55,907 bases of DNA from an uncultured Planctomycetaceae bacterium (GCA_903863885.1 CAIPEB010000326.1:1-55907), one strand, 5' to 3'; counted from the first letter of the stretch, positions 25,954-30,291 are shown. Made by a program: numbers and translations. Notes: generated by a model not told the origin, from the letters alone.

Positions 25954-26946
25954 TCAGCCTCCGGATTGCTCGGCTTCGGCCGCCATCGCCGCGAGCCGCA
26001 ACTGCGGCAGGGTCCGCCGATGCTCGCCGCGAATGTAGAAGCTCTCGCCGCCATCCGCGACCGTGCGCACGAGAACCGTCTTCCACGGGCGGTAATAGTA
26101 CTGATGATCGGTCTTGTTTGCCTCGGAGCGGAAATCGCCGCTGAGCGGCAACAGATCGAAGACGGCGGTTGCGAAGTTCGAGATGCGCCGCCCTTCCTGG
26201 CACGCGACGTTTCGAGCCATCGCGAGCGCTTTCAAATAGACTTCCGGTCCCATCACCGCGGAACCGTAGCAGAGGAAGGCACCGCCCTCGAGACGGTCGA
26301 CCGTGGCACAGACCGCGAGGAAGTCGCGATAGCTCGCCGTGGCAAACAGAGCCGGGTCGAAATTCGGGTGCTCGTGCAGGATGTCGTACCCGATGCCGAC
26401 ATGCACCGAGGCGGGAATGCCGAGGCGGGCCGCAGCGGCCAGCACACTCAGGTCCTTATGCGGGTAGTCGCTCTCGAGAATCGCGCGGCCGATGGCTTCG
26501 CCAAGCCCCAGGCCGGCTCGCGCGCCGGCGTTCACGAGGTCGTTGAGTTCGCCCGTCTCGCGCCATAGTCCGAATTCCCCGGTGCGGATGTAGCGTGCGA
26601 CGCTTTCGCAGGTTGCTCCGATGCGGGCCATCTCGTAGTCGTGGATCGGCCCCGCTCCGTTCAGGCCGATGTGGGTGATGAGGCCCCGTTCGAGCAGGTC
26701 GATCAACTGCCGCTGAACGCCGGAGCGGATCACGTGCGCGCCCATCAGCATCAGGACCGAAGCGCCTCGCTTCTTTGCGGCCACAAGCCGGTGGCCGAGC
26801 AGCGCGAGGTCCTGCATGGCCGGCCGCTCGAGCGGCAGAGGCGGTGCGTCCAGCGCAAGGACCGTGGTGTGCGAGACGTCGTGCGTGCGCTCGTCGAGCG
26901 GGCGGATGCGCAAACGGCTTCGATCGAACTGCGGCAACCTGCTCAT
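25954..26946 (-). CDS. deoxyhypusine synthase-like family protein
   Basis: Region LMLMGAHVIRSGVQRQLIDLLERGLITHIGLNGAGPIHDYE parallels the DHS motif (TSNLISSGxRE...TTAGGVEED); C-terminal GSAVMGPEVYLKALAMARN resembles the DHS GGGVVKHHIANANLMRNG segment. Start set at MSRLPQF (ATG 26944-26946) overlapping the HAD stop by 4 nt. Confidence 0.55.
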   Translation of the reverse strand: MSRLPQFDRSRLRIRPLDERTHDVSHTTVLALDAPPLPLERPAMQDLALLGHRLVAAKKRGASVLMLMGAHVIRSGVQRQLIDLLERGLITHIGLNGAGPIHDYEMARIGATCESVARYIRTGEFGLWRETGELNDLVNAGARAGLGLGEAIGRAILESDYPHKDLSVLAAAARLGIPASVHVGIGYDILHEHPNFDPALFATASYRDFLAVCATVDRLEGGAFLCYGSAVMGPEVYLKALAMARNVACQEGRRISNFATAVFDLLPLSGDFRSEANKTDHQYYYRPWKTVLVRTVADGGESFYIRGEHRRTLPQLRLAAMAAEAEQSGG

Positions 26947-27788
26947 GGTATTCCTATCAATTGCATCAAGTTGTCGAGGCAGCGGTAATCCCCGATGATC
27001 AGATCCGCGCCCGCCGTGATCAGCCGGTTGCGTTTCCAGTCGTTGATTCCCACCCTCGTCGTTTCGTTGCTGGCGACACCGATGGCCAGACCGCCAACTT
27101 TTCTGGTTTCCTCGATTTCGACGAACCCGTCGCCGAACGCGACGATGTGGCGTCCGGGAAGGCCCGTATCCTCGATCATCCTGTGGATAATCATCGCCTT
27201 GGAAAACTGCTTGTAGTCGTCCAGGGCTCCGTAGATGTGCGACCCGAAGAATTCGTCGAGCCCCAGCAGCGCGACTTCGTCGCGGACGTACTTGAGGTCC
27301 GTCCCCGATGCGAGATACAGGGTCAGGCCGGCCTTCTGCAATCGCTGCAGCAGCCCGCGCGAACCGGGCACCGTCATGACTTCCGGAGGCACGCGACCGC
27401 AACGCACGTCGTCGATGCGCACACCGACTTCGCGCCAGAGCAGATCGTGGTACTGGTGCTTGTACTCGAGCGGTTCACGAGGCTCGCCGCCGCGCCGCCG
27501 CACCTCGTCGGCCAACTGCATCATCTGGTAGATGGTCTGCCGGCCATTGAGACGCATCACGAAGTCTTCGACAACCGCGTACAGCTCCTCGCGGGTTTCG
27601 CTTGTCCCGGTCTCGCTGAGCACATCCACCATCATCGGGATCATGGTGTCCTGCCAGTTGCGCCGCAACAGCGAAAGCGTGCCGTCGAAATCAAAGATCG
27701 CGGCGCGGAAATCGCCGCGCGGAAAATCGTCGCGCGCGATCTCCAGTCCGTCGGACGCCTGGCGATCTGAATTATCGGATCCCGTCAT
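26943..27788 (-). CDS. HAD-superfamily hydrolase/phosphatase
   Basis: Motif I FDFDGTLS, motif IV GDGFVEIEE; start MTGSDN (ATG 27786-27788). Confidence 0.7.
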   Translation of the reverse strand: MTGSDNSDRQASDGLEIARDDFPRGDFRAAIFDFDGTLSLLRRNWQDTMIPMMVDVLSETGTSETREELYAVVEDFVMRLNGRQTIYQMMQLADEVRRRGGEPREPLEYKHQYHDLLWREVGVRIDDVRCGRVPPEVMTVPGSRGLLQRLQKAGLTLYLASGTDLKYVRDEVALLGLDEFFGSHIYGALDDYKQFSKAMIIHRMIEDTGLPGRHIVAFGDGFVEIEETRKVGGLAIGVASNETTRVGINDWKRNRLITAGADLIIGDYRCLDNLMQLIGIP

Positions 27789-27911
27789 GACTATCAGGTT
27801 CTCCCGCCCTGCCGCACAGAAGATAACGCGGTACCTCACAGCGAAGTCGCCGCGCAGCGCCGGCAGGGGAGCCCAAATTATTAACGCCGGATCCGATCTT
27901 GTATACAGGCA

Positions 27912-28121
27912 CTAAGTCGCGTCTTCCGGTGCGTCCGACGGAAGGGCTGCATCGGAAGGAGGCTCCTCGGCAGAGGCCGTGCGCCCATGTTGACGCACGG
28001 CCTCGCGAAGCAGGAACTCGATCTGGCCATTCACGCTGCGAAGTTCGCTCTGAGCCCATGTCTCGAGTGCCGAGTACAGGTCCGGGCTGATACGCAGCAG
28101 AAATGACTTGCGCGGTGTCAT
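27912..28121 (-). CDS. ribbon-helix-helix (Arc/MetJ/CopG-type) DNA-binding protein, 69 aa
   Basis: [35 protein letters not shown] fits the beta-strand, helix, helix RHH pattern (Arc-like); lies 12 nt downstream of the SPFH gene. Confidence 0.55.
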
Positions 28122-28132
28122 GTCCCGGCACC

Positions 28133-29020
28133 TCAGTTGTAGAGCGTGCCCGTATTGATGACGGGCTGTGCATCGTGCTCACCACAGAGTACCACGAGCA
28201 GATTGCTCACCATCGCGGCCTTGCGCTCTTCGTCCAACTCCACAATGTGATTCTCGGCCAAGTCCTGCAGAGCCATCTGCACCATGCTCACGGCGCCGTG
28301 GACGATCTTCTGCCGCGCGTCGATGATCGCTTCGGCCTGCTGCCTCCGCAGCATCATGCCGGCAACTTCCGCCGCGTAGGCCAGGTGCGTCAGTCTCGCT
28401 TCCTCCACGTGCACGCCGGCTCGCGAAACTCGCTCGCACAACTCAGCGGTCAACGCCGCCGCGACTTCGTCCATGCCGCCGCGCAGAGTCGTCTCGTGCC
28501 CCTCGCCGTAGTCGTAAACGTAAAGACTGGCCAGATGACGCAGCGCGGATTCGCTCTGGATCCGGACATAGTCTTCATACCGCTCAACATCAAAGACGGC
28601 TTGCGTCGTATCCTCGACTCGCCACACCACCACCGCAGCGATCTCGATCGGATTGCCCCGCTTGTCGTTCACCTTCAATCGGACGCTTTCCAGGTTGCGA
28701 GCCCGCAGCGAGATCCTGAGCTTGGTGTTCAGCGGATTCGTCCAGTGCCAACCGCTCTCGCGAACCGTGCCAACGTACGCGCCGAATAACACCAGCACGC
28801 GAGCTTCGTTCGGTTGAAGGGAAAAGTATCCGTTGCAGCTGACTCCCCCGAGCAACGCAAACACCAGGGCGCCTACGAACGAATAAAGGTTGAAGATATT
28901 GGTCTGCTTCGCCCAGTAAATCGTCCAAATGAACAGCCCTATCGCCGCGGCGAGCAACGCAATCGTGACCGGCAGGACAAGCCAGCCGCTGAGCACCCGA
29001 ACGGTCTTTTCACGGTTCAT
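28133..29020 (-). CDS. SPFH/band-7 domain membrane protein
   Basis: Two N-terminal TM helices then SPFH core ([28 protein letters not shown]...[14 protein letters not shown]...); GGAG RBS 8 nt before ATG at 29020. Confidence 0.8.
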
Positions 29021-29045
29021 CGAAGGTCTCCTAAAAAGGGGATGT

Positions 29046-29075
29046 CAATAGCTAAGTGATATCACTTAGCTATTG
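29046..29075. promoter_or_regulatory. 30-bp perfect palindrome CAATAGCTAAGTGAT|ATCACTTAGCTATTG, candidate operator (or terminator hairpin)
   Basis: Seen directly; AT-rich relative to the genome; 26 bp upstream of the SPFH start codon. Confidence 0.5.
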
Positions 29076-29217
29076 TTCGTGCAACCGTCGCGGATATTGG
29101 GGCGGGGAGAAGAGTCTCGAGGCGGGAGTCCGAAGACCGGAGGCGGGAAATCGCCTATCCTATTGTGTAGTAAAGACTACCGACTGCAGTCGAATGGCAT
29201 CACGCGGGATCCGCGGA

Positions 29218-30291
29218 TCAGCGATAGGGCTTCCATTCGGGGCGAGCTACTTCGACGGGGGCCGTCGCGGGTAGCCGTTTGGGTGCCGGCGACGTTCTTT
29301 CCGACGGGGCAGTCTGGCCCCCGCGGGAAATCCACTGGTCGCCACTGCGGCGAGGCACTCCGAGCGGCAGTGCGCTGGCCGACTCGAGTTGGCGTCCGTC
29401 TGCGGTCACGTAGCGAACGACAACTTGCAGGCGTCGATCTTGAGGAGGCCGCTCGGGCCAGGGCAGCTTGAGCTGGATTCCCCGGCTGTTGTCCGACTTG
29501 CGCATCTGCTGATCGACCTGAGTCGAATCGAGATCCCAGCGAGCGAATCGCTTTTTTTCGCCGGCTGCGGCCGGATTGAGAACGACAATGCTGACCGGGC
29601 CGGCCAGCGGCAGGTACTTGCCCTCACGATTTCGAGGTTCGATCACCAGATTGATGCCATCTTCGCCCGTTCTTCCGTCCCAATCGCTCGCCGCAGAAAG
29701 GTCGCTGTTGATCCAGATCTGGTCGACTCGAGGGTCGTTAAGATCCAGCATCGCCACAGCGCGATCGGCTGCTGCATTCGAGCCGGGGCGAGCCGGGCCT
29801 CGCGGATTGCCGGAGGAGGTCGGCAAAGAGGCCGGCGGATCGGTGGGGGTGCCCGGTTCGACGACGGGTGGCCGCAGGGGGCCGAGTTCTTCCTCGGGCT
29901 GCGACGTCGCGGGCGGAGCCGGTTCCGATGGCGAAGCGGGCATTTCGATGGTGGGCGGCTGGATATCCGGCACGCTCAGTCGATCGGGGCCTGCGGAGGG
30001 AGTTGCCGGCGAACTGCTGCCGGTGCTCGCGCGGCCCTTGCGGAGCTGTTCATTTTCCTTGCGGAGGCGCTCGATTTCCTTTGTCTTGGATTCGGCATCG
30101 AACTGGGCTTCGTAGAGCTGGTCTTCGACTGACCGCCGCGCGGCATTCTGAAGTTCGATGTGCGCGGCAAGATACGGATCGTTGCGACAACCCAATGCGA
30201 GTCCGCATGCTATGCAGAGCATGGCGAGATATCGATTGGATTTCGGGGGGATCGATTGGTTGCCGCGGGGGCGTTTGGGTTGTCCATCCAT
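29218..30291 (-). CDS. hypothetical proline-rich lipoprotein with N-terminal coiled coil
   Basis: Lipobox LAMLCIACGLALGC; long ORF; Pro/Ser-rich low complexity middle. Confidence 0.6.
   Translation of the reverse strand: MDGQPKRPRGNQSIPPKSNRYLAMLCIACGLALGCRNDPYLAAHIELQNAARRSVEDQLYEAQFDAESKTKEIERLRKENEQLRKGRASTGSSSPATPSAGPDRLSVPDIQPPTIEMPASPSEPAPPATSQPEEELGPLRPPVVEPGTPTDPPASLPTSSGNPRGPARPGSNAAADRAVAMLDLNDPRVDQIWINSDLSAASDWDGRTGEDGINLVIEPRNREGKYLPLAGPVSIVVLNPAAAGEKKRFARWDLDSTQVDQQMRKSDNSRGIQLKLPWPERPPQDRRLQVVVRYVTADGRQLESASALPLGVPRRSGDQWISRGGQTAPSERTSPAPKRLPATAPVEVARPEWKPYR

Follow-up and report, generated by a model that had tools for sequence, protein, structure and literature searches.

What does a perfect 30-bp palindrome do immediately upstream of a gene for an SPFH membrane protein? 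The question is raised by CAATAGCTAAGTGATATCACTTAGCTATTG, which occupies positions 29046 to 29075 of a 55,907-nucleotide stretch of DNA from an uncultured Planctomycetaceae bacterium, called here the window and analysed over its whole length. A preliminary description had read this DNA as a perfect 15+15 inverted repeat serving as the operator of an autoregulated module, made up of the SPFH gene and the RHH gene that follows it, and had named a terminator hairpin as the alternative. The inverted repeat is perfect as described, and it is the longest perfect palindrome of the window: no other exceeds a half-length of 9, and in 100 windows simulated with a first-order Markov model the half-length reached at most 11, against 15 in the real sequence. 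It is also AT-rich (33% GC), although the DNA around it is less GC-rich than had been stated, with 61.6% GC in the window instead of the roughly 68% ascribed to the genome.

The genes around the palindrome are read on the minus strand in the order tig, clpP, clpP, a 357-aa lipoprotein-like ORF, SPFH, RHH and a HAD hydrolase. From the end of the palindrome there are 25 nt to the ATG (29020-29018, minus) of the SPFH gene (28133-29020, minus), whose 295-aa product has two N-terminal transmembrane helices and matches Pfam Band_7 with an E-value of 5e-24. The RHH gene (27912-28121, minus) begins 11 nt past the SPFH stop codon and encodes a 69-aa, Arc-like protein, the predicted repressor, to which Pfam RHH_5 (PF07878) gives a match of 30.2 bits (E 3.9e-7), above its cutoff of 26. 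A ribosome-binding site, AGGAG (29028-29032, minus), is located 7 nt before the ATG and is kept in close relatives. The T-run mentioned in the preliminary description does follow the palindrome on the minus strand (29037-29033, beginning 8 nt beyond it), and it abuts AGGAG. On the other side, the lipoprotein-like ORF (29218-30291, minus), which has a lipobox-like LALGC and no Pfam match, stops 142 nt before the palindrome.

Directly 3' of the lipoprotein-like stop codon, at 29180-29193 (minus), the DNA can form a small hairpin resembling a terminator, and a promoter-like TATACA-17-AATAAT is found at 27877-27905 (minus), right after the RHH stop and before the HAD hydrolase gene. The presence of these two elements on either side suggests that SPFH and RHH form a separate transcription unit. 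The genes beyond it, for the HAD hydrolase, a protein of about 330 aa without Pfam match and a PfkB kinase (25954-27839 of the window, minus), come after RHH in close relatives only: they are present in L081 and L083 (91% and 80% SPFH identity) and absent in L085, which indicates local synteny outside the module. A 482-aa ORF at 25954-27402 overlaps the HAD ORF, and its 5' end is probably over-extended.

The pairing of the two genes extends far beyond this organism. Relatives of the SPFH gene were scanned in one genome per species, giving at least 573 loci, of which the best 80, with 54-72% identity to the query, were kept; judged by their record titles, these belong to Planctomycetota, Verrucomicrobiota, Acidobacteriota, Chloroflexota, Bacteroidota and Gammaproteobacteria. 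A same-strand RHH homolog is found downstream of SPFH in 78 of these 80 loci, and the contigs of the other two end 140-300 nt past SPFH. The reverse look-up from three RHH homologs led to an adjoining SPFH gene in every case (3/3), one of these SPFH genes being frameshifted in a long-read assembly. In about a third of the loci the gap between SPFH and RHH is 10 nt or less, which fits co-transcription. The SPFH protein itself is 55-72% identical across phyla. The two genes are separated in some loci by one or two membrane-protein genes, encoding bPH_5, a two-transmembrane bacterial PH-domain protein found in this place in many Verrucomicrobiota loci (L026, L064, L071, L018), or a CPBP/Rce1-like intramembrane protease (L010, 4649-5641); such additional members of the operon are facultative.

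The distribution widened when the proteins of annotated plasmid records and of mislabelled chromosome records were searched, and the module is now seen in at least nine bacterial phyla. It is present in Bacillus thuringiensis (SPFH WP_000660677.1, RHH WP_001085171.1), Parabacteroides distasonis, Qipengyuania, Prevotella nigrescens, Deinococcus, Acetoanaerobium and Nonomuraea. The orthologous RHH genes are named inconsistently by RefSeq (L206 2295-2492; L208 2264-2428; L211 2276-2467; L207 2363-2563): the product is called 'HicB family antitoxin' in B. thuringiensis and Qipengyuania, 'Arc family DNA-binding protein' in P. distasonis, 'hypothetical protein' in P. nigrescens and, by mis-annotation, 'PTS ascorbate transporter subunit IIC' in Deinococcus. 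The RHH gene of Bosea carries no annotation in its record.

The assignment of the small protein to the RHH group is supported by several comparisons. Most of the listed homologs have a precomputed PF07878 match, and the RHH domain, from residue 1 to 47, shows little or no variation across 79 sequences at K5, F7, L9, R10, R28, S29, N31, Q33 and E35; R4, K5, R10 and the RSVN-Q motif are invariant among the RHH homologs, which is an indirect sign of the predicted sequence-specific DNA binding through the sheet. Conservation stops at about residue 47, after which the C-terminal tail varies in sequence and the total length ranges from 46 to 108 aa. In a profile comparison with P22 Arc by hhalign the whole domain was aligned over 49 columns (E 8.5e-5, probability 60%), placing SFLLRI on the QFNLRW strand and RSVNGQIE on RSVNSEIY. 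The strand of Arc is the part that reads bases, through Q9, N11 and R13. The best profile match in the PDB, to the RHH protein HP0222 (1x93), was weak (E 0.23), and the single-sequence PDB search returned chance-level matches only (E about 0.7). An AlphaFold2 model of the monomer contained helices and no N-terminal strand (mean pLDDT 73.7), as expected of an obligate dimer, so the predicted fold rests on sequence evidence.

When the DNA upstream of the related SPFH genes was compared, the palindrome appeared as one form of a conserved element with three 6-bp boxes placed exactly 11 bp apart, GATwTC-N5-GATATC-N5-GATAkC. The minus strand of the window gives it as c-AATAGC-taagt-GATATC-actta-GCTATT-g, where the distal (left) box AATAGC (29069-29074, minus; left-box consensus GATwTC) and the proximal (right) box GCTATT (29047-29052, minus) each lie 11 bp from the central box GATATC (29058-29063), which is the core of TGATATCA. 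The half-site AATAGCTAAGTGAT put forward in the preliminary description is better understood as an outer box together with half of the central one, and the search for it, like that with the operator matrix, found no further copies elsewhere in the 56-kb window. A three-box site is located upstream of SPFH in 81/81 loci. With the sequences anchored on the best triple, the fuller consensus GATwTC-A-nn-r-T-GATATC-A-y-nnn-GATAkC was recovered in 80 of 81 sequences, window included; the remaining one is L017, whose site is 510 nt upstream of SPFH. This locus has a 160-aa membrane ORF (1670-2152) between operator and SPFH, a candidate bPH-like protein by the look of it. A GC-rich insert of about 110 nt is found between operator and ribosome-binding site in one Planctomycetota clade (L085, about 2390-2500; L218, 1980-2100).

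Of the 80 loci, 71 have a GATATC within the 120 nt upstream of SPFH, where 1.2 would be expected judging from the remaining DNA of the loci. Around exact GATATC, similarity to this hexamer peaks only at -11 and +11 bp (4.6 of 6 positions, against a background of about 1.4), with no rise at 22 bp on either side. At each of the six positions of the central box, 78-80 of the 80 aligned sites keep the conserved base, and the C at position 6 is present in all of them (80/80). In relatives with 78-91% SPFH identity, only the boxes, the ribosome-binding site and the -35-like region of the intergenic DNA have escaped divergence. Scored with a matrix built from the other loci, the window site reached 33.4 bits, while the next best position in the 56 kb scored -0.3 and shuffled sequences 10 at most. 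Across 507 kb of related loci no second site of 15 bits or more was found, including the DNA before displaced RHH genes. Three distant SPFH paralogs without RHH (from a Pseudomonas aeruginosa plasmid, P. amygdali and Vibrio) had no site, the best score being below 0, in a sample of three where the absence of RHH is confounded with distance.

All seven organisms of the wider distribution have three-box sites with 11-bp spacing (7/7). By the matrix, the sites of Bacillus and Qipengyuania score 30-32, those of Prevotella and Acetoanaerobium 25, and those of Parabacteroides and Nonomuraea 15-17; the Deinococcus site scores low, but its boxes are still visible as GATATC-N5-GATACA-N5-GATGGC. In Bosea (L209, about 1410-1435) and Rhizobium (L214, about 1248-1275) the RHH gene is present and the boxes stand 7 bp apart, GATATA-c-GATATC-a-GAAATC; the RHH proteins of both have T or L in place of the otherwise invariant Q33. 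This Hyphomicrobiales spacing may be a natural variant of the dimer phasing. Three other identities considered for the palindrome were set aside: a Fur-type box has the wrong repeat phase, an EcoRV-type methylation site leaves the three phased boxes unexplained, and for the inverted repeat of a mobile element both a second copy and flanking repeats are lacking.

Boxes of this type were also sought in metagenome contigs with the strict pattern GATNTCANNNTGATATCANNNNGATA, which returned 80 loci, 4 of them too near a contig end and 76 interpretable. Sites directly upstream of SPFH, in either orientation of the pseudo-palindrome, accounted for 43 of the 76. The other 33 had no SPFH gene and were mostly in low-GC contigs or in 11-bp tandem TGATATCA iterons; the neighbours checked against Pfam include genes for ParA-like, AbiEii, resolvase, MNT-type nucleotidyltransferase, hydrolase, CoA-transferase and GNAT proteins. 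No coherent extra regulon was found among these 33 hits; since they lie beside unrelated genes, the box type is not exclusive to the SPFH-RHH module. In contigs L106, L108, L131, L141, L145 and L157 the 11-bp-phased TGATATCA repeats come in up to four tandem copies, near genes for a ParA-like ATPase, AbiEii, a resolvase with a weakly RHH_7-like ORF, and an MNT-type nucleotidyltransferase. Boxes of this kind may also function in other RHH-type modules, of the partition or toxin-antitoxin class.

The element overlaps a promoter-like sequence. Across the related loci TTGAC begins for the most part 20-21 nt ahead of the central G (26 loci), which leaves a spacer of 16-17 nt to a TG-n-TATCAy that coincides with the central box. 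The window follows the same layout on the minus strand, with TTGCAC at 29084-29079, a spacer of 17 nt, TATCAC at 29061-29056 and a TG at 29064-29063, such that GATATC would double as extended -10 region. From consensus alone, this geometry would be that of an extended -10 promoter in a phylum, Planctomycetota, whose promoters are poorly characterised; a promoter consensus scan of the window did not call TATCAC, because its last base is C and not T. The left box would then fall within the spacer of the promoter and the central box on the -10; the right box would probably straddle a transcription start near 29049, from which a leader of about 29 nt carrying AGGAG follows. The invariant C6, the palindromic central box and the flanking boxes are not sigma-70 features and require a dedicated DNA-binding protein.

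The gene product that would be regulated is an SPFH membrane protein without a close relative of solved structure. Its transmembrane helices are confidently predicted at residues 12-40 and 45-62, and with a positive-inside N-terminus the SPFH domain is predicted to face the cytoplasm. The C-terminal tail is almost invariant, PV(I/V)N(T/A)GTLY. Prohibitin was the best profile match in the PDB, a weak one (E 0.019); the single-sequence PDB search at the default threshold gave no match, and the AlphaFold2 model was unusable (pLDDT 49), built on a shallow alignment of sequences 68-80% identical to the query. To our knowledge the functions of the bacterial SPFH proteins (stomatin, prohibitin and flotillin-like) are still largely unclear, and NfeD proteins and FtsH are the only partners that we know to be widely discussed. 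The 2009 survey of prokaryotic SPFH proteins by Hinderhofer et al. gave the groups SPFH6-12 as undocumented, and a DNA-binding partner for SPFH is not mentioned in the portions of the survey considered here (PMC2636767). In the literature searched for SPFH together with RHH, CopG or Arc, PF07878 or TGATATCA operators, no description of such a module was found. FlotP of B. anthracis was considered and belongs to a different family, SPFH2a with NfeD. The module, in which a divergent SPFH subfamily is joined to a dedicated RHH protein and a near-invariant three-box operator, appears to be undescribed in that literature.

We think it probable that the palindrome is an operator bound by the RHH protein and that this binding represses the SPFH-RHH operon. 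The more general statement, that the site is a conserved protein-binding operator of the module and not a terminator, we regard as close to secure. The proposal of the preliminary description is strongly supported by the gene pairing (78/80), by the occurrence of the element (81/81) and by its overlap with sigma-70-like promoter hexamers. In the mechanism that we propose, the co-transcribed 69-aa Arc-like protein would bind cooperatively as dimers, each box taking one, with about three on the whole site; a dimer would place its two-stranded sheet, which carries the invariant R4, x6, L8 and R10, in the major groove. As the boxes are centred 11 bp apart, all three dimers would lie on one face of the DNA helix, where, covering the region from -35 to +1, they would occlude RNA polymerase. 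The operon would in this manner be repressed by its own product, and since the repressor comes from the same transcript, the result would be a negative feedback that holds SPFH expression at a set level. The RHH protein has no conserved sensor or partner-binding extension, and the most economical form of the circuit is therefore plain homeostasis, in a loop like those of Arc, CopG or omega. The pairing of an invariant reading head with an invariant box is consistent with this assignment; because neither the RHH residues nor the boxes vary, covariation cannot serve to link the two.

How probable are the other explanations of the same DNA? The one that we find hardest to uphold is an intrinsic terminator, or an RNA hairpin at which the message of the upstream lipoprotein-like gene would be ended or processed. 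The RNA would indeed form a 13-bp stem (MFE -25.9 kcal/mol in an 83-nt context, z = -5.4) with a run of five U downstream. This stem, however, has 33% GC and is not G+C-rich, and the U-tract is not within 0-2 nt of it, since the 8 nt of ACAUCCCC part the stem from UUUUU. The terminator scan did not report the palindrome and found instead the small hairpin at 29193-29180, and no Rfam match was obtained on the intergenic region. Over the 80 loci the mirrored spacers are complementary at 38-54% against 33-47% in column shuffles, that is, at chance level; the usual perfect arm is 4-6 bp long, a 15+15 palindrome being seen in only 2 of 80 aligned sites (the window and L071), and a relative with 91% identity has the non-complementary spacers CAAG and CCAA. 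As the spacers change without compensation while the boxes are kept as sequence, it is not the hairpin that is conserved. Neither is the element bound to a particular upstream gene, which is divergent in P. distasonis according to the RefSeq annotation and in about 36 of 77 loci by a crude GC3-based ORF call. The terminator offered as an alternative in the preliminary description is accordingly abandoned. A somewhat less remote explanation, still very unlikely in our judgement, is that the conserved sequence is a promoter only, an extended -10 with AT-rich flanks and no repressor. It would account for a central box that reads TG-n-TATCAy at 16-17 nt past a TTGACA-like hexamer, but not for a C6 kept in 80/80 sites or for the palindromy of the central box, neither of which sigma-70 requires, nor for GATATC-like boxes recurring exactly 11 bp to either side and kept in phyla with other promoter conventions, such as Bacteroidota.

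The identity of the binder leaves more room for doubt, and a global or otherwise unlinked regulator occupying the operator while the RHH protein serves another role is an unlikely solution that deserves mention, as the link between protein and site is inferred and GATATC-type 11-bp iterons lie beside other genes in metagenome contigs. Against it, the site accompanies the module in at least nine phyla, no matter which genes lie nearby, the only DNA-binding protein encoded in the module is RHH, the SPFH paralogs without RHH have no site, and palindromic boxes at 11 bp fit the dimer binding of the Arc type, established for Arc and Mnt. RHH antitoxins commonly autoregulate, and the pair could for this reason be imagined as a toxin-antitoxin-like or defence module with RHH as an autoregulating antitoxin, an idea to which the RefSeq name 'toxin-antitoxin system HicB family antitoxin' of some orthologs and a weak Pfam ParD_like match (18.4 bits, below the cutoff of 23) lend themselves. 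We give it a very slim chance: the partner of RHH matches only Band_7/SPFH, and SPFH is not known as a toxin family; the PADLOC defence models matched neither protein; the variable RHH tail speaks against a conserved C-terminal partner-binding extension; and an SPFH identity of 55-72% across phyla is housekeeping-like.

Binding of the operator by the RHH protein, the explanation that we prefer, can be placed among known systems. The operators of Arc and Mnt have subsites about 11 bp apart, overlap a promoter and take one dimer per subsite. The protein described here resembles those of P22 in its class, small RHH proteins of about 50 residues, and in sharing the F-x-L-R strand and RSVN at the start of helix B. 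It differs in that its site has three boxes and not two half-sites, each box being a 6-bp palindrome GATATC, in that a chromosomal membrane SPFH gene and not a phage gene would be regulated, and in belonging to Pfam RHH_5 and not Arc, with binding that is predicted. CopG of pMV158, MetJ and omega set several dimers along short, phased repeats that cover their own operon's promoter, and the phased three-box array fits such cooperative dimer arrays, although its 11-bp period is unlike the 8-bp metboxes of MetJ, the 7-bp heptads of omega and the 13-bp element of CopG, with 7 bp seen only in the Hyphomicrobiales variant. The predicted regulatory logic of SPFH-RHH is, by this analogy, that of the Arc, Mnt and CopG autorepressors. 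Type II RHH antitoxins (ParD, CopG-like, HicB-type) are similar in having a small RHH protein beside a partner and probably autoregulating through a palindromic operator; unlike them, the present module has no recognisable toxin, no conserved C-terminal neutralising region and no match to defence models. On the side of the membrane protein, SPFH genes are known in conserved two-gene operons with NfeD (stomatin, QmcA-YbbJ, FloT-NfeD2, YqfA-YqeZ; PMC2636767). The SPFH gene of the window is likewise part of a conserved two-gene operon, but it is paired with a DNA-binding RHH protein in place of an NfeD membrane protein or protease. Its neighbours, the lipoprotein-like ORF, RHH and the HAD hydrolase, include no NfeD gene, and none was called in the close relatives.

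A more ambitious role for the module can be imagined, in which SPFH-RHH is a minimal circuit for sensing the state of the membrane and RHH is more than a passive autorepressor. By analogy with the control of PspF by PspA, the SPFH assembly would capture or release RHH according to the condition of the membrane. We consider this unlikely; if true, such a circuit would couple the occupancy of the SPFH ring to transcription across many phyla, and the near-total conservation of the 45-residue RHH domain and of the NTGTLY tail of SPFH would reflect a protein-protein interface. More immediately, the findings correct misleading names given to the RHH proteins, among them the 'PTS ascorbate transporter subunit IIC' of one Deinococcus record and the more frequent 'HicB family antitoxin'. 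The predicted repression can be tested in tractable carriers of the module, that is, the Bacillus cereus group, Parabacteroides distasonis and Deinococcus. For the SPFH family, a widespread subfamily with a dedicated small transcription factor and a near-invariant operator implies that the dosage of the membrane protein would be tightly controlled.
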